Shown: positions 3,489 through 61,219 of the stretch, one piece after another
How the letters are laid out: every line of letters begins with the position of its first letter
Position numbering within the stretch: position 1 is the stretch's first letter
Origin: a virus
Taxonomy: Duplodnaviria; Caudoviricetes
IMG/VR virus record: IMGVR_UViG_3300009095_000017
Span: 247-64,246 of that record
Reading direction: 5' to 3' (one strand)
DNA length: 64,000 nt
Program-made: the position numbers and the translations under genes
Notes under the pieces: model-generated
Database searches by the model: none
The model's input: only the letters and a program-made list of their open reading frames with translations
What the model was told of the DNA's origin: nothing

Positions 3489-6008
3489 ATGAGTACTCAA
3501 ATGTACCTGTATCCGTTCGATCCTACGGGGTTGGCGGAAACGAACAAGATAACGAATGAGCGGCACACGATCCTTGCGCCGTCCATGCTCGATTTCTTTT
3601 TTATTGTACCGAAGTGCGCGCCGTACTTTCGTCGTTCGATGAAGGTGCGTCACATCACCACCGGTCGAGTGCTGACGGAAGGCATTGACTTCACCTGCAC
3701 GCACCTCTTCCACGAGGCGTCTCACAGCATCGGTCAGCCGATCTATGGTTCGATCACCTTCTACGACCATACCCTGACGGGTCAAGTGTCGTTGGAGTAC
3801 CAGACCATCGGTGGCGATTGGACCATTGACGAAGCCACCATCGCTCGACTGCTGGCCAACTATACCACCAATCCCCGTGTCACCACATGGGAGCAAGTGG
3901 TCAGTCGACCGTACCAGTTCCCGCCGATCAACCATGAATTCGACATCGACGACTTCTATGGTGCCAGTGACATCGTCGAAGTGCTAAGGACCATCAAAGG
4001 TTCGATCGACCAATCGGGTGCGGCCGGTCTGAATACGCACATTGCGGACATCAATAACCCTCACCAAGTGACGAAGGCACAGGTCGGTCTTGGTCTGGTG
4101 ATGAACTATCCGATTGCCACGCAAGGCGAAGCCCAGAACGCAACCTCTAACGCGGTCTACATGACCCCACTGCGGACCAAACAAGCGATTGAGGCTATCG
4201 CAATCGCTGCACTGGATGTACACCGCAACGATAAATCCAATCCGCACGAAGTCACCAAAGTGCAAGTCGGCCTGGGTAACCTTGAAAACTACCCGGTGGC
4301 TACGCTGGAGCAGGCACGAACTGGTACGTCGGGTTCTGTCTACATGACCGCCGAACGAGTCAAGGATGCGATCACCGCACAAGTGCGCACTGACTTCGAT
4401 GCGTTCGTACGGCGTCGCGACAACCCGCATGTTGTGACCAAAACGCAAGTGGGTTTGGAACTACTGGAGAATTATCCGGTAGCTACCAAACAGCAAGCTG
4501 AAGACGGTAACTCGAACACGGTTTACATGACCGCGCTACGCGTTAAAGAAGCCATCACTGCACAGTTCACCACTGGTATCAACGTGCACTTGGATGACCG
4601 CAATAACCCGCACATGGTCACCAAGGCGCAAGTGGGTTTGGGTAATGTCGAGAACTTTGCCATCGCCACGGAAGACGAGGCCCGTTCGGGTACGTCCAGT
4701 ACGGCTTACATGACCCCCTTGCGGGTACGTCAAGCGATTGACGCGATGGGTGGTTCGGTAGATAGCCACATCGAAAGCCGTGATAATCCACACCAAGTGA
4801 CGAAGGTGCAGGTAGGACTCGGCAATGTCGAGAACTATACAGTTGCCACTCAGGCTGAAGCTGAAAGTGGTTCATCGAATGCCGTATACATGACCCCACT
4901 GCGCGTCAAGCAAGCCATTGCAGTTTTGGGTGGCGGCATGAATGCTCACGCTAGCGATACGGATAACCCTCACAGGGTCACTGCTGAACAGGTGGGTGCC
5001 TACGATAAACCAGCGATCGATCTGCGTTTCGTATCAATCCAATCCTCCATCAATGACCTTGCGTTGAACTTAGCTGAAAAACTTGGCCGGTCGGAAACCG
5101 CCGCCAACTCAAGGCTTCTTGATGGCAAGGCTGAAAATCAGCTAAGTGTGGCAAACGCTGATCGCTTGGGCGGTAAATCTATCGGCGATATCATCTCGGA
5201 AATTGGCTCAAGTCAATCAGCAGTTGTCATTATCCGCGCATACGAGGAGACTATAGACGAACCGATTAACTATATGGAGCTGTTCCGCTACCAGGTACGT
5301 TTGATCGACTCGGCCGATTCCTCGTATCTTTACAACTACGGTACGCTGTCCATCACGGTTGCCGGCTTTGAGCAAATGCCAGCAACCTTGTCCAATAAGT
5401 TCGAACTGACTTTCAGTTTTGAAATGCAGGCAGATGCCGTTAAGGTCAAAGATATCTATTCGTCTGTCGATACCAATTTACTCGATCCGTCGGTAGTACC
5501 GATGTACTACATCGAGACAGATCAAGATGGCAATCAGGAATTTGTATTCGGCTTAAAGACAGCAGGTAATCGTAAAGACGGTTATGTAATAGCGCCAGCG
5601 ATTAGTCTCATCTATGAGCCTTTCGTCGAGCCGGTTAACGTTGTACCGGACGATGCTATTGCTGTCAATGTAGCACCACCTAAAGCGGCGGACAGTGCTC
5701 TGCTTAATGGTAAAACCGAAAATCAGTTGGATGTAGCGAACGCTACTCGACTGGACGGCCATACCTACGCCGAGTTGATTTCTGTTGTAGATACCGCCGT
5801 TCAAGATCTTGTCAGTCAGTCGCAACTGACGAGCGCTCTAGAGGACAAGATCAGTCAAGTCCAGCTGGATAGCGCTCTAGAGGACAAGATCAGTCAAGTC
5901 CAGCTGGATAGCGCAGTAGAAGATCTGGTGGATAATGCGCAACTCGATTCGATAGTTCAGTCACTGACGACTATCTTCACCGAAGCGCTCGGGCAGCTTA
6001 ATTCCTGA
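3489..6008 (+). CDS. Tail fibre-related virion protein with NPHxVTKxQVGLGxxENY repeats (phiKZ gp145/gp146-like)
   Basis: N-terminal YPFDPTG...N.I..E.H domain typical of phiKZ-like tail proteins, followed by about six ~62-aa repeats. Confidence 0.75.
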   Translation: MSTQMYLYPFDPTGLAETNKITNERHTILAPSMLDFFFIVPKCAPYFRRSMKVRHITTGRVLTEGIDFTCTHLFHEASHSIGQPIYGSITFYDHTLTGQVSLEYQTIGGDWTIDEATIARLLANYTTNPRVTTWEQVVSRPYQFPPINHEFDIDDFYGASDIVEVLRTIKGSIDQSGAAGLNTHIADINNPHQVTKAQVGLGLVMNYPIATQGEAQNATSNAVYMTPLRTKQAIEAIAIAALDVHRNDKSNPHEVTKVQVGLGNLENYPVATLEQARTGTSGSVYMTAERVKDAITAQVRTDFDAFVRRRDNPHVVTKTQVGLELLENYPVATKQQAEDGNSNTVYMTALRVKEAITAQFTTGINVHLDDRNNPHMVTKAQVGLGNVENFAIATEDEARSGTSSTAYMTPLRVRQAIDAMGGSVDSHIESRDNPHQVTKVQVGLGNVENYTVATQAEAESGSSNAVYMTPLRVKQAIAVLGGGMNAHASDTDNPHRVTAEQVGAYDKPAIDLRFVSIQSSINDLALNLAEKLGRSETAANSRLLDGKAENQLSVANADRLGGKSIGDIISEIGSSQSAVVIIRAYEETIDEPINYMELFRYQVRLIDSADSSYLYNYGTLSITVAGFEQMPATLSNKFELTFSFEMQADAVKVKDIYSSVDTNLLDPSVVPMYYIETDQDGNQEFVFGLKTAGNRKDGYVIAPAISLIYEPFVEPVNVVPDDAIAVNVAPPKAADSALLNGKTENQLDVANATRLDGHTYAELISVVDTAVQDLVSQSQLTSALEDKISQVQLDSALEDKISQVQLDSAVEDLVDNAQLDSIVQSLTTIFTEALGQLNS
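5832..5914 (+). repeat. Exact 39-bp in-frame tandem repeat x2 (SALEDKISQVQLD)
   Basis: agcgctctagaggacaagatcagtcaagtccagctggat at 5832-5870 and 5871-5909, plus a partial third copy. Confidence 0.9.
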
Positions 6009-11912: not shown

Positions 11913-11946
11913 GCATACAGGGGGAGCCGAAGCTCCCCCTGTATGC
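11913..11946 (-). terminator. Rho-independent terminator between convergent genes
   Basis: 15-bp stem, cUUCGg loop and U-tract on the minus strand. Confidence 0.85.
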
Positions 11947-24079: not shown

Positions 24080-24144
24080 TGGTGTATCCTCTTAACAAAA
24101 AAGAAAAGGCACATGGGGGAGCCGAAGCTCCCCCATGTATGCCG

Positions 24145-33323: not shown

Positions 33324-33355
33324 CATAGGGAGGGAGCCGAAGCTCCCTCCCTATG
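33324..33355. terminator. Terminator between convergent genes
   Basis: 14-bp stem; cUUCGg loop and U-tract on the minus strand. Confidence 0.8.
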
Positions 33356-36988: not shown

Positions 36989-37181
36989 GTTTATTAGTAT
37001 TTTGGGTAAAGGGAATAAAGCAGATTACCGGTTCCCTAGTACTCAGTTGGCACTAGGGAACCGGCTAGGGCGATGTTTAATCGCCGGCATTAACTGCCAT
37101 AACGGGCATCTAACCCGTCTAGTCATTCGAGTTGCCGTTGCAGTACCATCGGGAATATCGGTTGAAGTCAGGTACGCAGCT

Positions 37182-37364
37182 CTATGACAGACGACCCCCC
37201 ATAGGTCGCGTCAATTGACCACTGTACCTGAGTGCCGGGTCCCGCAGTTTACTTTCCGTGAGTACTCGACGTGGAAGCCGTTGGACATTCCGCCCGACCG
37301 GTAAGCCTTCCAGTAAACCTGCGATCATGGACCACAGCAGATCAAGCATGATCAGCAGTGGCAA
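37182..37364 (-). CDS. Small hypothetical protein
   Basis: gaggag RBS upstream of a TTG start; hydrophobic N-terminus. Confidence 0.35.
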   Translation of the reverse strand: MPLLIMLDLLWSMIAGLLEGLPVGRNVQRLPRRVLTESKLRDPALRYSGQLTRPMGGRLS

Positions 37365-37456
37365 AGCAATTGCTCCTCGTTAAGGCTTGGGGCAGAATGC
37401 CCCAAGTAAGTGTTGTTCACCGTCGCCTTTATTGCACTTCATCTCTGCGACGCGTG

Positions 37457-37750
37457 CTAACCGCAGTCCTTCACTGCGTGCGGGTGCGTTAGAGCAGAGA
37501 CCAAAAGCAAATGGGCACGTTGTTCCGTTTCCGTCCACCATAGCCGAGGAGCGAGGACTGGAGCCTCGTATTCCCTCTCTATGGTGACGAACATTTCAGG
37601 TCTACCCCACAGCGGGCACTTATAGTCCTGAATGACAACCATCATCTCAGATGGCACTTTGTCGAACAACGGTTCCCCAGTCGCTTTGGCTGGAGTGAAC
37701 AATAAGGCGAACGATAAGGAGCTGCCAAAGATGGCAATAATCCTAGTCAT
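37457..37750 (-). CDS. Secreted/periplasmic hypothetical protein
   Basis: Signal-peptide-like N-terminus. Confidence 0.45.
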   Translation of the reverse strand: MTRIIAIFGSSLSFALLFTPAKATGEPLFDKVPSEMMVVIQDYKCPLWGRPEMFVTIEREYEAPVLAPRLWWTETEQRAHLLLVSALTHPHAVKDCG

Positions 37751-37847
37751 TTCAATCCCTTACTGCATGGTGTCTCATCAGATTGCCATTGTAGGTATTT
37801 ATTTACGAAACGGCATAGAAGGGAGGTTTCCCTCCCCTCTAGTCGTG

Positions 37848-50503: not shown

Positions 50504-52486
50504 TTACAAGCCGGTGAAGTTTGGGTCGTCGATGATCACACACTTGTTCTTCAGGGCTTTGTCGAGCTTGCTGCCAGGATCGCTGCCAATCAACAAATGC
50601 GTGGTCTTCTTGCTTACACTCCCCACAACCGTTGCCCCACGGTCCAGAAAGTACTGGAGGATCTCGCTGCGCTTCATTCGATTGAATGAACCACTGACAC
50701 ACCAGACTTGACCGGACAATGGTCCGGTTTTCAGTTCAGTGGCTTTACCCGAGGTAACCCCGAGTTCCAACAAGGAATCCAGTTCCTTACGGTTGACCGG
50801 ATCTCGGATAAAGTCATAGAACGCCCGTGCGGTGGTTTCCCCGATATCGTCGATAGCCCAGATGTCTTTGGGTTCTGCCGCCGATAGGGCATCGATTTCA
50901 CCGAAGGTTACCGCGATGGCCGCCGCCGTGCTTTTACCAATACCCGGAATGCCTAAGACTTGAATGAACTTTTCAAGGTTCATGCCCTTAGACTTCTGGA
51001 TGGATTCGTAAACCTTGGTCCCGTTCGCCTTACCGATGACCTCTACGCAGTCTTCCAGCGTCAGACGATACAAATCACTGGGTTTACGAACCACCTTCTT
51101 ATCCCACAGTTCATCGATGCTCTTCGACCCTAGCGATACCACATTGGCACATTCCCGGCTGACGTAGTACACCAAGTTCTGTTTGAGCTGGTCAACACAA
51201 CCGTGGACATTCGGGCAGTAGACCTCAACCTCTTTGCGTTGCAGTTCTGTTCCGCAACACGGGCAGTGCGTGGGAGTCTTGAAGGCTTCACCGATCCCTT
51301 TCTTGGTAACCGACACGACATCCGGAATCACATCCCCGGCACGAACCAGTTCGACAGTGTCGCCAATCGAGACCCCGAGAGTTTCGATCTTGTCGAAGTT
51401 GGCTAGGTTTACCGAGGTGATCTGTACGCCGCCGATCTTCACCGGGGTAACCTTCCCGACAGGGGTCAGTACGCCGGTTCGACCCACCGTGATCTCGATG
51501 TCCTCCAAGGTACTTAGCCCTGACATCGGCGGATACTTGAACGCCACCGCCCAACGCGGATGATGACTGGTGTCACCCAGTAACTGACGAATCCCGTAAG
51601 AGGAGACTTTCAGCACTGCTCCGTCGATGTCACAAAAGAACACAGACCCTTTCTTTTCACGCAGTTTCCTGAAGTGTTCTACTGCTTCTTCCAGCTGCTT
51701 ATGCGTTTTCACTTGTCGACCCACGACACAATCGAAGCCGAAGCTGCGGATCGAAGTCATGGCAAGTGAATGATCTTCGGCCAGTTCCCCACCAGTGGCT
51801 ACTTCGTAGGCATAGAAGCGAATCACTTCACCGAAGACATTCTCCGGCTTCAGTTGACGCATGTTCCCAGCCACGAAGTTCCGGGCATTGGCGTACGGCT
51901 TTTGTCCCGAGGCGATCAGGCGTTCGTTCAGTTGCCCGAACAGTTCCAGATCGGCCACCAGCTCCCCACGCACTTCCAGCTCATAAGGCTTACGGCGACC
52001 TTGCAGCAGGTATGGGATGTTGCTGACCATCTGGACGTTGTTGATGATATTCTCCCCTTCCGAGCCGTCACCACGGGTCGTGGCCTCCACCAGCTTGCCA
52101 TCCCGGTAGAACAACCGACAGGCCAAGCCATCGAGCTTCGGCTCCATGACATAGGTCAAATCCATCCCCGCTTCTCGGTTGGCTCCATCCATGAACCGTA
52201 CGAGGTCTGGCAAGGTGAAGACCTTATCCAGTGATTTCATAGGCATGCGGAATTGGATCTTAGGCAGGTAGCCTTTTACGACTGGAGCCACCCGTTTGGT
52301 CGGACTGTCCGGCTGTGCCAAGTGCGGATGCAGGCGCTCCAGTTCTTTCAAACGCTCCAAGAGCTTGTCGTATTCGGCGTCGCTGATCAGAGAGGTGTTG
52401 CGGTTGTGGTAATAGTCGTCATACTTTCGAATCGCTGCGGTGAGTTCCGCGATCTCCGATTCAAGATTGGGTGTTACACTGGACAT
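50504..52486 (-). CDS. ligA: NAD+-dependent DNA ligase
   Basis: ISDAEYD, EPKLDGL (KxDG), TRGDGSEGE, EVRGE, DIDGAVLK, PRWAVAFK, Cys4 zinc finger, C-terminal BRCT. Confidence 0.93.
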   Translation of the reverse strand: MSSVTPNLESEIAELTAAIRKYDDYYHNRNTSLISDAEYDKLLERLKELERLHPHLAQPDSPTKRVAPVVKGYLPKIQFRMPMKSLDKVFTLPDLVRFMDGANREAGMDLTYVMEPKLDGLACRLFYRDGKLVEATTRGDGSEGENIINNVQMVSNIPYLLQGRRKPYELEVRGELVADLELFGQLNERLIASGQKPYANARNFVAGNMRQLKPENVFGEVIRFYAYEVATGGELAEDHSLAMTSIRSFGFDCVVGRQVKTHKQLEEAVEHFRKLREKKGSVFFCDIDGAVLKVSSYGIRQLLGDTSHHPRWAVAFKYPPMSGLSTLEDIEITVGRTGVLTPVGKVTPVKIGGVQITSVNLANFDKIETLGVSIGDTVELVRAGDVIPDVVSVTKKGIGEAFKTPTHCPCCGTELQRKEVEVYCPNVHGCVDQLKQNLVYYVSRECANVVSLGSKSIDELWDKKVVRKPSDLYRLTLEDCVEVIGKANGTKVYESIQKSKGMNLEKFIQVLGIPGIGKSTAAAIAVTFGEIDALSAAEPKDIWAIDDIGETTARAFYDFIRDPVNRKELDSLLELGVTSGKATELKTGPLSGQVWCVSGSFNRMKRSEILQYFLDRGATVVGSVSKKTTHLLIGSDPGSKLDKALKNKCVIIDDPNFTGL

Positions 52487-52519
52487 GAACATGCTCCATA
52501 GGGTAATGCTGTCACAGCC

Positions 52520-52533
52520 ATAATGTACAATTG
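52520..52533 (-). promoter_or_regulatory. Putative phage promoter motif upstream of ligA
   Basis: Minus strand caattgtacattat. Confidence 0.55.
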
Positions 52534-52555
52534 AAATCCAATCGGAGACGACATA

Positions 52556-52579
52556 GACGGGGGACCGAAGTCCCCCGTC
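52556..52579 (-). terminator. Hairpin with cUUCGg loop on the minus strand
   Basis: gacgggggac-cgaa-gtcccccgtc. Confidence 0.7.
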
Positions 52580-52593
52580 CACGGCGCTTGCGC

Positions 52594-53540
52594 GCATTCC
52601 CCTACCTAGCACTTCCCATGCCTAGAAAGCACCCTGCTGGACACTCGATCGGGCTGGTACCGGCCTTGGATGAATGTCACAGTGGCTGCCAACTAGAAGA
52701 TCAACTACTCTGCACTGTAAGGCAGTCGTAAAGATCGTTTGACAACTTACCTGCCAAGCGTCACCTTAACAGGTCGTACCGTTTGCGTTCGCCAATTGAC
52801 GGTCGGCTACCAGCGCTTAATTCATCCCCTCTACGGTAACAGCAAGGGATGCCGGCGTTCGATGACGCCGGGCTATGACCTGCCCGTGCGGCAGGTTTCT
52901 GACTATTTAACGTCGGTCTTTTTCGAATAGTGCGACGGTATTAGGACGTCAGCGGCGCTTTGGGGGACATGGCAATCCGAAGGAGGTGACATCGGAGCCG
53001 CTGACGTGTTAGGTGTAAAACCAACCGTCCGGGGGTTATCGCAGGACCCTTGGATGATTGTGGTTGGTTTTACATTTGGAACGGGAGAGTGGCGATAGGG
53101 TAACGTTGAGGTCACTGCGGAGGGTAGCCACTCTCCCGTATTCGTAGAAATCGTTCCTGACTCGCCAACCCTTTCGGATTCGCCTAAGGGTGGCTGGGGG
53201 CTTGGTCGGTACCGCCAGGAGGAATACCGATTGCCAGCGCTTATACTCTCGTCCCTCTATCGGCATGCCTTATCCGTCGTTGGACTGGAGGTAGGTCGAG
53301 GGACTCGGTGGTGCACCCCCCAACATCCTCGAAAAGGAGCGATTCCGAAGATGTTGGAGGCTACGAACTCCGAACTGAACAAGAGTCATAACTTGCAGGC
53401 GTTGGCCGGACGTCTGCCAGACCGGTTTACGAGCGCTCAGCAGCGGGCAAGATGAGAGCGCTACCAGCGGTCAGCTGGTCGAAGTGCAACCGGTGAACAC
53501 TTCCGGGGCGTCGAGGAACGACGATTGCTTAGGGGGCTGC
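52594..53540 (+). ncRNA. Candidate large highly structured non-coding RNA (~950 nt), class not recognised
   Basis: No credible ORF. Many helices, including 11-, 13- and 13-bp perfect stems. The 5' and 3' ends pair, and G-U wobbles mostly work on the + strand. Confidence 0.72.
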
Positions 53541-53560
53541 ATCATTCCTCAGATCATGGA

Positions 53561-54160
53561 TCAATCGTGTAAAAAATTACGATTTTCCAATTCGATCGCC
53601 CGGTCGATGAGGGCAAGGGTTTGCTCAAAGGGGTCACCTTCACGGGAGAGCATGCTCGCAGCGATGCCGGAACCGCCATTGAGCACCGCACTCAGTAGGC
53701 CGGTGGTAAGCTCCCAAGCGAGGCTGGGACCTGACGTGGCGCCGGTGTTGTGTGCTTCGCGGCGCTGCTCCTCTCGGATCTGCGCTTCCTGCTCTGCCGT
53801 CAGGTAACTGGTGTATTCACGCAGTGCCTCCACGGTCGCTCGGAACTTCATCAGCTCTTGCACAGCTGGGGCTTGGTAGTGTTCGGGGCTGTAGACGGCG
53901 TCTTCACCCACCTTATCGATGATGTCCGACAGCGCTTCAAGGGTCAGCTCCATATCGGTGGTTTCATCGGTGTCACTTTCGGTGTCCGTACCGACGAGGC
54001 TGTGTTCCGTACCGGAGAGCAGGGTTTCGCCGACATCCTTGAAGGATTGCAGCTCTTCAAACGACACATTGCCACGGGCCAGCAGACCCTTGCCTTGGAC
54101 CATCAGGGATTCCAGCGTGGATTTGAGTCGGGTACGATACCCGTCGTTATTTACACTCAT
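53561..54160 (-). CDS. Putative head protein with x-x-E maturation-like motifs
   Basis: TLES, SFEE and TLEA motifs resemble prohead-protease sites; acidic linker. Confidence 0.5.
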   Translation of the reverse strand: MSVNNDGYRTRLKSTLESLMVQGKGLLARGNVSFEELQSFKDVGETLLSGTEHSLVGTDTESDTDETTDMELTLEALSDIIDKVGEDAVYSPEHYQAPAVQELMKFRATVEALREYTSYLTAEQEAQIREEQRREAHNTGATSGPSLAWELTTGLLSAVLNGGSGIAASMLSREGDPFEQTLALIDRAIELENRNFLHD

Positions 54161-54218
54161 GATGAGCACCTTTCGGTAAGATTCTATAGGTTTACCCGTC
54201 CTTATTAGGAGTCAAGTA

Positions 54219-56246
54219 ATGTTTGCTGCCATCTCGCGGGTCTTGGGGATCATTCAGGTGAATGAAACCTCTACCCACATCATAATTGAAGGAATTGATG
54301 CATGGAAGATCAGTCGGGACATTGGTAGCCACTGGCAGACCAGCAAAGTCGTGAACTTTATGTTCAATCTGATGACACGTCACAAGCTGGTGTTTCCGAA
54401 GTTCTTTGCCATTGATGTCCTGTATATTTTCGAAACCTTGGCGGCACCAGGACCGCGCTGCATGTACCCCAAACGGGGTTATCGGAAGATTGCCGACATC
54501 CTCAAACAGGAAACGTGGCTGGCCAATATTGACAATGAGCAAGTTAAAGGCCCGTGTGACTTTTCCAAACTGAAAGAGATTGGGTTGTCCTTGATGCCTC
54601 ACCAGCGCGAGTTCTTGGAGATGTACGACAAGACCACGGTGACCTACAACCTCAATGGCATGTTGCTGGCCGCTGCGCCAGGTTCCGGGAAGACCCTGAC
54701 CGGGCTGGCGCTGGCGTCTGTGGTCGGCGGGGATGTAGTGTTTATCATCTCCCCTAAGAACGCAGTGGATCGGGTATGGTCAGCAACCTTGCAGGAACAC
54801 ATGACCCAGAAACCCAGTTTCTGGGATTCGCTCTCCGGTGAACGCGTACCGGAGCCAGGTCATAGGTACTACGTGTTCCACTACGAGGCCCTGGATCGGG
54901 CGGTGGAGCTGGCCAAGCGCATCCGGTGCAAGAATGCGGTCATCATCTTGGATGAATGTCACAACTTCAACGATGTGAAGTCGCAGCGCACCCAGCTCTT
55001 TATCGAACTGTGTCGGCACACCCGATCTCGTCACGTTCTCTGGTCGTCTGGTACGCCGGTGAAGGCCATGGGTTCGGAGATGATCCCGTTCCTCACCACC
55101 GTGGACCCCTTCTTCAGCAAACATGCCGAAGAGCGCTTTCGCAAGATCTTTGGTCGCGATGCTAAGAAGGCCAACGACATCCTCTGTAACCGGATCGGTC
55201 TGGTATCCTTCAAGGTGGACAAAGCCACCATCGTCGAGAACAAGCTTGAGGAGCACACGATCAAGGTGTCGATCAAGAACGGTGCCGACTACACCTTGGA
55301 AGCCATCCGGGATCGAATGGTTGCCTTCATCAACGAACGGATTCGATACTACGAAAAGAACATGAAGGAGTTCACCGAACTGTACGAGAAGTGCTTGGCA
55401 ATCCACGCATCCACGCTGCGCAGTCATGAACTGAAGGACTTCCAGTACTACAAGGATTGCGTGGCCATGATCCGTAAAGGGTACGATCCGGTGGTACACA
55501 AGGAAGAGGCCATGTTCTGCAACCGTTACGAGTTGAAGAACATCATGCCCAGCCTACCGCAAGAGTTGCGCAAGCCGTTCAAGGGCGTCCGATCGGTCAT
55601 CAAATACCTGAAGCTCAAGGTGCTGGGTGAAGCCCTCGGCGGTATTCTGGGTAAGGCGCGCGTGCAGTGTCACTTGGACATGATCGAGAACATGGGAATT
55701 CCACAGATCGTCGATGGTGCGATCAAGAAGACCCTGATTTTCTCCTCGTATGTGGAAGTGGTCGACAAGATCGCCGAACACATGTCAGGCAAGCGGTACA
55801 TGCCGCTGGTGGTGCACGGGGGAACCAACAAGGACTTGGCCAACATCGTTGATCGGTTCTACAAGGACGAGGACGTCAACCCCTTGGTGGCGACCTATCA
55901 ATCCTTGAGCACCGCTGTACCGATCACCGCCGCCAACTGCATCATCCTGACTAACCAGCCGTTCAGGGATCATGAGCGGGAACAGGCGATCAGTCGTGCA
56001 TTGCGCATCGGTCAAGATCAGACCGTGCACGTCTACAACATGATTCTGGACACCGGTGAGAAACCCAACATCTCCACCCGTGCCAAGGATATCATGGAGT
56101 GGAGTAAGGCCAGTGTGGCAGCCATCATGGGTATCGAGGTTCCGCAGGATATCGAAGCGACCCTTGAGAACTTTGCGGAAGGGATTCCCGAGCAGTGGGC
56201 CACACAAATGGAATCGCTCAATCAGCAGATTGAACAGTTCCTTTAG
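54219..56246 (+). CDS. SF2/SNF2-type helicase
   Basis: AAAPGSGKT, IILDECHN, WSSGTP, SRALRIGQ. Confidence 0.88.
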   Translation: MFAAISRVLGIIQVNETSTHIIIEGIDAWKISRDIGSHWQTSKVVNFMFNLMTRHKLVFPKFFAIDVLYIFETLAAPGPRCMYPKRGYRKIADILKQETWLANIDNEQVKGPCDFSKLKEIGLSLMPHQREFLEMYDKTTVTYNLNGMLLAAAPGSGKTLTGLALASVVGGDVVFIISPKNAVDRVWSATLQEHMTQKPSFWDSLSGERVPEPGHRYYVFHYEALDRAVELAKRIRCKNAVIILDECHNFNDVKSQRTQLFIELCRHTRSRHVLWSSGTPVKAMGSEMIPFLTTVDPFFSKHAEERFRKIFGRDAKKANDILCNRIGLVSFKVDKATIVENKLEEHTIKVSIKNGADYTLEAIRDRMVAFINERIRYYEKNMKEFTELYEKCLAIHASTLRSHELKDFQYYKDCVAMIRKGYDPVVHKEEAMFCNRYELKNIMPSLPQELRKPFKGVRSVIKYLKLKVLGEALGGILGKARVQCHLDMIENMGIPQIVDGAIKKTLIFSSYVEVVDKIAEHMSGKRYMPLVVHGGTNKDLANIVDRFYKDEDVNPLVATYQSLSTAVPITAANCIILTNQPFRDHEREQAISRALRIGQDQTVHVYNMILDTGEKPNISTRAKDIMEWSKASVAAIMGIEVPQDIEATLENFAEGIPEQWATQMESLNQQIEQFL

Positions 56247-56259
56247 GCAAAAAAGAAAA

Positions 56260-56292
56260 CATACAGAGGGAGGCGCTGGCCTCCCTCTGTAT
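56260..56292. terminator. Terminator between convergent genes
   Basis: 15-bp stem with an A-tract on the + strand. Confidence 0.8.
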
Positions 56293-56296
56293 GCCG

Positions 56297-58744: not shown

Positions 58745-59662
58745 TCAGTTACCTCCCTCTATGAGTTCTAATACGGGACGCCAGATATACGAGGCAGTAC
58801 CTACATTAATGCTGACGTTGGCGTATCCGGTTGGCAGAGTGCTTGCACCGCGCCGAACTACTGTGGTAGAGCTGTATAACTCTTGCACTGCGGTGTAGCC
58901 AAACACTTCCATAAGTGCCACTTTGGGCATGCGCTGCTTCACGGGGGTCTGTTTGGATGACATGGGGTACATGAAGTCATCCCATTCATTGCTGGGCCAG
59001 GTCGCACTATTGTCCTCTGTACCGTTAGCCGCCGGTTCAACAGTAACATCATCACTGAACCCGCGCATCAACCGGACAATATAGCGGTCACCCTCGATGG
59101 TCACTGTTTTCAATTGATTAACGGGAGCAGGGTTGGGAATGTATGGTTGCCCTTCGTGATAAGGTGCATCAATACCGTACACCAGCCCTGCGTTATAAAG
59201 CGTAGTCCAGCTGATGCTGTTGACCAAGGTATTGTCTGGAACGAAAATCACTTTGTTATTGCGAATGAACTTGTGCCAGATAGGGGTTTCGACGTTAACG
59301 ATACCGGCATTGAGGCCCACTTCATTCATCAACCGACGAGTGTCGATAAAATCCATCGATGTACAGGAACCAAAATATCCGTAATCAAAATTTCCATATT
59401 GTAGTTTGTTTGGTCCAGTACCGCGACGAGGGGCGTCCTCGATGACATATACCTTGGATATTGCTTGATGTTCACCCTTACGCGCTACGATGACGTAGTA
59501 ATAGGTCAAACCAAATAGCGTCCCAGTGTCAACGTATTCTATCGCTCCGGCTGGGAGGCGGGCAACCGGTTCACCCAGCGCAGCACGATCCAGTGGCTCC
59601 GTTGAGCGATAAACATCGATCTCAGCGTTGCTTGGATTTATCCAGCGTAACGTAGTGGCCAT
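58745..59662 (-). CDS. Virion structural protein (FN3-like N-terminus plus GYFG domain)
   Basis: GTGPNKLQYGNFDYGYFG...WHKF...IFVP...W..LYNAGLVYG. Confidence 0.65.
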   Translation of the reverse strand: MATTLRWINPSNAEIDVYRSTEPLDRAALGEPVARLPAGAIEYVDTGTLFGLTYYYVIVARKGEHQAISKVYVIEDAPRRGTGPNKLQYGNFDYGYFGSCTSMDFIDTRRLMNEVGLNAGIVNVETPIWHKFIRNNKVIFVPDNTLVNSISWTTLYNAGLVYGIDAPYHEGQPYIPNPAPVNQLKTVTIEGDRYIVRLMRGFSDDVTVEPAANGTEDNSATWPSNEWDDFMYPMSSKQTPVKQRMPKVALMEVFGYTAVQELYSSTTVVRRGASTLPTGYANVSINVGTASYIWRPVLELIEGGN

Positions 59663-60483
59663 TATTCAACTCCTTGGAAGGAAGGTAGTACGGGGGTAAA
59701 TTCGCTGTTGACGTAGGACATTTGACGGATGACCTGCGGTCCGGTATTCGCAAAGTTGGGCGCAATCATTTCCCAATCGGTGTTTACTCTATCGAGGATG
59801 ACAGGTGCAGGGAATCCTTCCATTGGCGATTCGATGTATTCGAGCACCGGGAACCAAAGACCATTAACGGTGGTAGAAAGCCCTGTAGCCGTACTACCAT
59901 TAATGTAAACGACCAGACGGTTAGCCAACGTAGCCGCCCACGCTTCCTTGGTTAGAATTCTGCTGGTGATGCCGCTGGAATTGAAGTTCCAAATAGCGCT
60001 AGGAGAAGATGAATACAACCTATAAAACAATCGATCCCATTCGGACCCAGTCGTATCGGCGGTAGCCGGATCGGTCAATGAACCCGATATCAACCGAATA
60101 CGGAATTGCTCGTATCGCCCATTAATTTTTGAAAGAAAGGTTTTTCCTTGATCCACCATTGGGGTCAGGGGATACGCGCCCGGACCCGGTTCACCGTACA
60201 CCAGTCCACACGAATACAAGGCTTTCCACGTGGCTTCGGTGGCCAGAGGTTTCTCGGGGAAATAAAGGATCTTTCCCTGATAGGCCAGTTTGACCCAGCG
60301 TACATTCGTATCGACAGTGATATCGGGTAGGGTCAAGTAAGTCTTAACGATATCTTCGACTTGGATGAATGGTCCCTCGACATCGCCGAAGATACCCAAA
60401 TCCATGGTACCGTAAACCAACTCGCTCGGGCCGGGAGCACTGGGTATTCGTCCCCCAGTACTATTTAAAATAAGTTCAAACAT
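59662..60483 (-). CDS. Virion structural protein (GYFG-type domain, MFELIL start)
   Basis: ggagg RBS; PGPSELVYG...WVKL...LYFP...W.ALY..GLVYG. Confidence 0.65.
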   Translation of the reverse strand: MFELILNSTGGRIPSAPGPSELVYGTMDLGIFGDVEGPFIQVEDIVKTYLTLPDITVDTNVRWVKLAYQGKILYFPEKPLATEATWKALYSCGLVYGEPGPGAYPLTPMVDQGKTFLSKINGRYEQFRIRLISGSLTDPATADTTGSEWDRLFYRLYSSSPSAIWNFNSSGITSRILTKEAWAATLANRLVVYINGSTATGLSTTVNGLWFPVLEYIESPMEGFPAPVILDRVNTDWEMIAPNFANTGPQVIRQMSYVNSEFTPVLPSFQGVE

Positions 60484-60702
60484 GTAACCTCCTAAATGGC
60501 CTACATAGGATTTAACCCATTGTATGTACAGGCAATGTTCGCATTGCACCTAAGGAGGTGATCCGGCCATTCTCTCTCGACTGGTGGTCACGCTGGGAAG
60601 CGTTATCCGTCAGTCACAGCTGCCTGTACAGGGAGGGCTTCGGCCCTCCCTTTTATGCCGTCTCCAAAGAAAAAAAGAAAGGAGGGCCGAAGCCCTCCCT
60701 CA

Positions 60703-61170: not shown

Positions 61171-61219
61171 GATGTTTCTCCTAGAGGAATAAGAGGGGGA
61201 CCGAAGTCCCCCAAAATGG

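Follow-up and report, generated by a model that had tools for sequence, protein, structure and literature searches.

A non-coding, stem-loop-bearing gap upstream of ligA in a phiKZ-type jumbo phage: a candidate non-coding RNA or structured spacer

The early transcripts of T7-type phages carry RNase III processing hairpins between genes; these are irregular structures of ~60 nt in which an internal loop separates a lower from an upper stem. Among the large ornate RNAs known from phages and prophages are GOLLD (RF02032) and ROOL (RF03087) (10.1101/2024.12.08.627333; PMC5737381), and both of them often adjoin tRNA islands in these genomes (10.1101/2024.12.08.627333). In phiKZ and 201phi2-1, conserved G-rich stem-loops act as terminators, and intergenic as well as UTR-derived non-coding RNAs have been described, with the sRNAs of 201phi2-1 being drawn from transcription units of <250 nt (PMC11512511, PMC10914365).

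The locus analyzed here is like GOLLD and ROOL in being phage-borne, ORF-free, in the size range of several hundred to ~1,000 nt and of unknown function. It is also like the phiKZ and 201phi2-1 loci in coming from the same phage group and in being bordered by a hairpin (52556-52579) that falls into a gene-end stem-loop class. The window, by which we mean the whole stretch of DNA analyzed, comprises 64,000 nt of a 64,246-nt IMG/VR virus contig with a completeness estimate of 23%, and its origin from a phiKZ-type jumbo phage, as proposed in the initial annotation, was confirmed by a Pfam PhiKZ_MCP match at 7e-195. At present, the gap is a candidate known from a single sequence, and the evidence weakly suggests that it represents a lineage-specific non-coding RNA or structured spacer.

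Extent, coding status and occurrence of the gap

The gap and its gene neighbourhood are as follows:

50504-52486, minus strand: ligA, NAD-dependent DNA ligase (Pfam DNA_ligase_aden at 1.8e-62; OB, HHH_2 and BRCT domains)
52487-53560, no strand assigned: ORF-free gap of 1,074 nt between ligA and hyp202, defined by the ORF list, six-frame codon scores and family searches
53561-54169, minus strand: hyp202, an orphan 202-aa gene with gene-like codon usage (total LLR 97)
54219-56246, plus strand: helicase gene, divergent from hyp202

The gap reaches from the ATG of ligA (52486) to the stop codon of hyp202 (53561) and is slightly longer than the stretch of 52594-53540 described initially. It is flanked by minus-strand genes on both sides, with ligA downstream and hyp202 upstream. 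The ligA gene is complete and has its own start and its own promoter-like motif. The hyp202 gene is an ORFan, its sole match among 5.8 billion proteins being itself, with no match by tblastn against phages and no usable lead from the Atlas.

The longest ORFs inside the gap are 63-76 aa in length and their translations are random-looking. When scored with a log-likelihood model of codon usage, for which 52 long genes of the window served as the training set, these ORFs gave per-codon LLRs of -0.33 to 0.00, compared with 0.28 +/- 0.14 for genes and a mean of -0.25 for spurious ORFs within genes, and no gene-like codon score was detected in any of the six frames in 50-codon sliding windows. The gap had no matches in PHROG or Pfam and no similarity to the ORFs of the related loci that were fetched. 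A protein-coding gene is ruled out by the ORF list, the codon scores and the absence of protein similarity, and a decayed gene or pseudogene was rejected as well, with no frame retaining leftover codon bias and no similarity to the ORFs of relatives. The gap is non-coding, and the earlier statement that the stretch holds no credible ORF is upheld by both the codon scores and the PHROG and Pfam searches. It had also been called the only ORF-less stretch of ~1 kb; the stretch is real, but it is not the only one, as the window holds a second ORF-poor gap at 36989-37847 (859 nt). This second gap lies between two minus-strand genes, follows directly on the upstream gene's terminator hairpin, carries ORFs that score as non-coding and holds a perfect 13-bp hairpin (37028-37064), with no sequence similarity to the ligA/hyp202 gap. 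In comparison with the other gaps of the window, the ligA/hyp202 gap has nothing in common with them except the terminator hairpin core.

No homologue of the gap was obtained by blastn against 50,697 phage records, by exact-pattern scans of IMG/VR, JGI metagenomes and GTDB genomes, or by BLAST against 20 related jumbo-phage records, and the sole 19-nt matches in related jumbo-phage records are located within the coding sequence of the relatives. The nearest LigA proteins share 47-48% identity and are found in a different gene order, and the relatives of the helicase share 30-45% identity with no neighbouring genes in common. In 14 related phage records, ligA is directly preceded by open reading frames of ~110-200 aa with no gap, and an apparent 1-kb gap in one relative (L009, IMGVR_UViG_3300024312_000003) was rejected as a counterpart because it is filled with small ORFs. 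Among the records searched, the gap looks lineage-specific. A mobile element was also considered and rejected, as no direct repeat flanks the imperfect terminal inverted repeat.

In the source soil run, the whole stretch was recovered in an independent contig with even depth, and the sequence is therefore no assembly artefact. In addition, two runs from one bovine-metagenome study yielded contigs with 99-100% identity, which cover 53221-53454 and not the rest of the 2.3-kb query:

53221-53443, no strand assigned: bovine-metagenome contig of 223 nt, with three differences
53304-53454, no strand assigned: bovine-metagenome contig of 151 nt, with no differences

This coverage may reflect the presence of the phage at low coverage or chance, or else a segment that is more widely shared. 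RNA runs were absent from those in which the stretch was detected, which speaks neither for nor against its transcription.

Stem-loops, folding and sequence motifs

The structural features and the motif on which the analysis centred are listed below:

52946-53007, no strand assigned: stem-loop H1, a perfect 11-bp stem (52946-52956/52997-53007) with a 40-nt loop
53009-53079, no strand assigned: stem-loop H2, a perfect 13-bp stem (53014-53026/53062-53074) with a 35-nt loop
53081-53139, no strand assigned: stem-loop H3, a perfect 13-bp stem (53081-53093/53127-53139) with a 33-nt loop
53317-53360, minus strand: 18-bp hairpin of 15 Watson-Crick and 3 G-U pairs, complete on the minus strand only
53512-53551, minus strand: 12-bp hairpin with 3 G-U pairs, directly 3' of the hyp202 stop codon
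52980-52989, plus strand: perfect 10-nt Shine-Dalgarno (SD)-like sequence that lacks a suitably spaced start codon

The stem-loops H1-H3 stand side by side within 194 nt and are separated by 6-nt spacers. Perfect inverted repeats of at least 10 bp number 33 in the 64-kb window, compared with 1-4 in block shuffles, and H1-H3 are the only long stems (≥11 bp) of the window with loops >30 nt, the remaining long stems being intergenic hairpins with loops of 3-7 nt. No cluster of the H1-H3 type was observed in a complete 254-kb relative, which contains just scattered long-loop repeats of 10-12 bp, and a covariance model built from H1-H3 had no match in the 20 related records, its single match in the window being H1-H3 themselves. 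H1-H3 are non-random, far beyond what chance explains, and they are the sole statistically solid part of the hairpin signal. All of the helices listed in the initial annotation were found again to within 1 nt.

The details of these helices differ between the strands. On the plus strand only, H2 is extended by five weak pairs (four G-U) and by an inner 11-bp stem at 53027-53037/53045-53055 (four G-U), which together make a composite hairpin of 29 bp through eight G-U pairs. On the same strand, the three G-U pairs of the 53317-53360 hairpin turn into C-A mismatches. The sole variant listed in the bovine-metagenome contigs, 53289 A>G, changes a U-A to a U-G pair in the plus-strand stem 53266-53271/53288-53293, where the pairing is retained on the plus strand only, and it is a weak single pointer to that strand. 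Within the H1 loop, an inner 5-bp hairpin (52976-52980/52992-52996) displays AAGGAGGTGA. The segment 52974-52983 of this loop, which includes part of the SD-like motif, is complementary to 53170-53180 just past H3 over 10 contiguous pairs, a possible long-range or pseudoknot contact for which the match taken by itself is not significant.

Folding of the 947-nt piece against 20 shuffles per strand gave z-scores of -2.7 on the plus strand and -10 on the minus strand, and local folding (span ≤120 nt) against 100 shuffles gave -2.4 and -5.4, respectively. Seven coding control segments lay between +0.3 and -2.6 except for one at -4.6, and an analysis of 150-nt windows with composition regressed revealed that the gap is no outlier and does not rank with the most stable kilobases in the window. 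The native folding energies of the two strands are about equal; the difference in z-scores arises because the plus strand is G+U-rich and its shuffles fold better, and it therefore carries little information on the strand.

Several of the structural arguments made earlier for an ornate RNA on the plus strand did not hold against these results. The plus-strand folding energies (z of -2.4 to -2.7 against shuffled controls) lie inside the range of the coding controls. The pairing of the ends (52594-52611/53526-53540), which had been thought to close one discrete domain, is near-certain only if the exact 947-nt piece is folded and falls to 0.21 (plus) and 0.00 (minus) expected pairs when the flanks are added (52440-53700); the closing helix is an artefact of where the boundaries were set. 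The claim that G-U pairs occur mainly on the plus strand failed likewise, since the local MFE structures are balanced between the strands (39/307 pairs on plus and 32/299 on minus). On either strand, the predicted architecture is a chain of ~15 local hairpins, and the predicted fold supports no multi-way junctions or pseudoknots.

Read on the minus strand, the SD-like sequence at 52980-52989 becomes UCACCUCCUU, which looks like an anti-SD and resembles the 3' end of the 16S rRNA. The plus strand of the gap contains five copies of GGAGG, this sequence among them, compared with a window-wide density of 0.7 per kb; most of the five are located in predicted loops, and CCTCC does not occur in the gap. 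The triplet GGA occurs 23 times, compared with 15.8 +/- 4.6 per 981 nt in the window, and just ~5-6 of the copies are unpaired; GGA as such is not enriched, so that a CsrB/RsmZ-like sponge RNA, which would expose many GGA motifs in hairpin loops, does not appear to be supported, and the Csr/Rsm families of Rfam had no match in the region. The SD-like and GGAGG motifs were noticed post hoc and are leads only.

Elsewhere in the window, at 60551-60563 on the plus strand, a perfect 13-nt TAAGGAGGTGATC was observed, which is complementary over its full length to the 16S rRNA 3' end, with ATG, GTG and TTG absent within 12 nt. Some 65 nt downstream lies a UUCG hairpin of the plus strand, whose tail is U-rich (60630-60652), and on the minus strand the site abuts the called GTG start of the gene at 59662-60549. 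The site may mark a short RNA made from the plus strand, or else a small ORF that starts in an unusual way.

Transcription signals and competing explanations

The signals that bound the gap on the ligA side, together with the other sites of the same promoter-like motif, are as follows:

52556-52579, minus strand: UUCG-loop hairpin of 10 bp, G/C-rich, of the gene-end hairpin class
52520-52541, minus strand: ligA promoter-like motif of the TTCAAnnnTACATTAT type, 41 nt upstream of the ligA ATG
13479, 28778, 33932, 34952, 41270, 52527, 57828 and 62124, minus strand: sites of the promoter-like motif

A conserved class of perfect hairpins was detected at ~20 intergenic sites of the window (for example 1045-1086, 11913-11946, 24111-24138, 33324-33355 and 56260-56293), with a G-rich stem, often a CATA...TATG base, a UUCG/CGAA loop in many of them, and often runs of A and of T on opposite sides. 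The class resembles the conserved terminator motif of phiKZ and 201phi2-1 (PMC11512511), and in ~8/10 assessable cases the strand that reads UUCG agrees with the direction of the gene whose end immediately precedes the hairpin. The member at 52556-52579 shares an identical 18-nt core with 61195-61212 and has no U-tract. After the stop codon of hyp202, the usual gene-end hairpin of the phage is absent; the first minus-strand hairpin of the class past hyp202 is the one at 52579-52556, which lies on the opposite side of the gap; the ligA promoter-like motif comes directly after it. This motif, with the form (A/T-rich)-TTCAnAnn-TACAT[TC][AG]T, occurs at eight sites, all of them intergenic, upstream of minus-strand genes and in the same orientation, and none was found on either strand inside the gap proper. 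A sigma-70 scan was empty, and matches to a terminator-like consensus were obtained on the plus strand only and were no commoner than in shuffles.

The positions and orientations of the bounding hairpin and of the ligA promoter-like motif are direct observations. As hyp202 lacks a terminator and the UUCG hairpin stands at the far end, transcription of the minus strand through the gap is the simplest account, and the hairpin at 52556-52579 likely marks where it ends. We infer from the signals that the gap is transcribed, on which strand, and that its hairpins might have a role at the RNA level. The reading that we put forward, tentatively and as a possibility short of an even chance, is that the gap is the untranslated, structured part of a minus-strand unit which extends from hyp202 to the UUCG hairpin and whose hairpins work on the RNA. 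Transcription, co-directional with both flanking genes, would run from hyp202 through the gap, and the product would be either a ~1-kb 3' continuation of the hyp202 mRNA or a co-oriented non-coding RNA, with the UUCG hairpin (52579-52556), immediately ahead of the ligA promoter-like motif, as its end point. In this RNA, the tandem stem-loops might then affect processing or stability, or bind a protein. Besides the arrangement of the gene-end hairpins, the minus-strand reading is supported by the 18-bp and 12-bp helices, which depend on the G-U pairs of the minus strand, and by the larger excess over shuffles on that strand (z of -5.4 vs -2.4). Counting against it are the missing U-tract of the bounding hairpin, the origin of the z-score difference in the G+U-rich shuffles of the plus strand, and the features that favour the plus strand, namely the G-U-rich extension of H2, the five GGAGG without CCTCC and the variant 53289 A>G. 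The perfect stems, free of G-U, could equally fit DNA-level selection or template-switch mutation.

The latter possibility leads to the view that the gap is a spacer without function, left over from gene loss or an insertion, in which the hairpins would be by-products of template switching (quasi-palindrome correction) in unconstrained DNA. We consider this rather unlikely. The restriction of the stretch to this phage, with no gap before ligA in the 14 related records, the ORFan next to it and the plus-strand folding, not above the coding background, all speak for such a spacer, and the second ORF-poor gap of the window suggests some slack in the genome. However, residual coding signal and similarity to proteins of relatives are both absent, three adjacent perfect stems with 6-nt spacers are hard to obtain without selection, 1 kb of useless DNA is seldom retained by phage genomes, and runs from a different habitat contain part of the stretch at 99-100% identity.

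The proposal of the initial annotation, a stand-alone large structured RNA transcribed from the plus strand, antisense to both flanking genes, is unlikely. The 29-bp composite hairpin of H2, the excess of GGAGG, mostly in loops, and the bovine-contig variant all speak for that strand, and the absence of an Rfam match would make the RNA new if it were real. On the other hand, neither a plus-strand promoter-like motif nor a plus-strand terminator bounding the gap was found, the G-U asymmetry on which the strand assignment had been built is missing, and the transcript would run antisense across hyp202 and then into the helicase gene. Together with folding energies inside the coding-control range and a chain of local hairpins in place of a robust closing helix, this leaves the ornate-RNA reading on the plus strand not backed by the evidence. 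That the gap forms a stand-alone structured RNA of ~1 kb and of an undescribed class, whichever the strand, is likewise unlikely. If true, this would be the first case of a large non-coding RNA in a nucleus-forming (phiKZ-like) phage, and the SD-like motifs displayed in its loops (anti-SD-like on the other strand) would hint at an interaction with ribosomes or mRNA. Should the gap prove to encode a stable RNA, long structured RNAs would be shown to exist in nucleus-forming jumbo phages, and studies of RNA localisation or ribosome interaction would gain a defined object.

It is also unlikely that the gap works at the DNA level, whether as a site of replication, priming or recombination or as a cluster of protein-binding palindromes among replication genes: the stems of H1-H3 consist of 37 bp of pure Watson-Crick pairs, as if both strands must pair, and lie between ligA and the helicase gene, but iterons and other direct-repeat families, an AT-rich segment and a GC-skew inflection are all missing, which also rejects a replication origin, loops of 33-40 nt are unfavourable to cruciforms, and the gene-end RNA hairpins of the same phage are perfect palindromes too, so that stem perfection does not discriminate between DNA and RNA. 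For the preferred minus-strand reading, the hairpin and promoter signals of the phage itself yield a concrete transcript model, which would lead from hyp202 through the gap to the UUCG hairpin.

Comparison with known RNA families and systems

No match was obtained when the whole window was compared with Rfam 15 at gathering scores, and only weak, meaningless matches appeared in the region at E≤10. The Rfam search, which the initial annotation had named as a check, thus assigned the gap to no known family. Its statement that core motifs of group I/II introns and of tmRNA are lacking also held in Rfam at E≤10 and in ARAGORN, which detected no tRNA or tmRNA in the 64-kb window. A group I/II intron is rejected, with no Rfam match at E≤10, an empty dedicated search for a group II domain and a complete ligA. 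In the related jumbo phage L009, the group I model (RF00028) detects an intron at 4700-4996 with 94 bits, and therefore the Rfam library works on this phage group; this intron is located ~1 kb upstream of a helicase gene. Dedicated searches gave no match to GOLLD at E≤10 and none to ROOL, the ROOL search being of unverified sensitivity and empty in every control genome as well.

The comparison with GOLLD and ROOL made in the initial annotation is not sustained by these results. Unlike those classes, the gap is matched by neither covariance model at E≤10, adjoins no tRNA island and is predicted to form a string of local hairpins instead of multi-way junctions; GOLLD and ROOL are defined by covariation, whereas the gap is known from a single sequence. 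The likeness appears to lie in size and phage origin only. As for the RNAs of phiKZ and 201phi2-1, no sequence similarity to them was found, and unlike the gap, none of those described is ~1 kb long or contains an array of perfect hairpins with long loops (PMC11512511, PMC10914365). The stem-loops of the gap differ from the T7 RNase III hairpins in that three of them occur in tandem with no genes in between, and may be likened to them in their size of ~60 nt, in their lower and upper stems separated by an internal loop, and in their position within a putative co-directional transcript.
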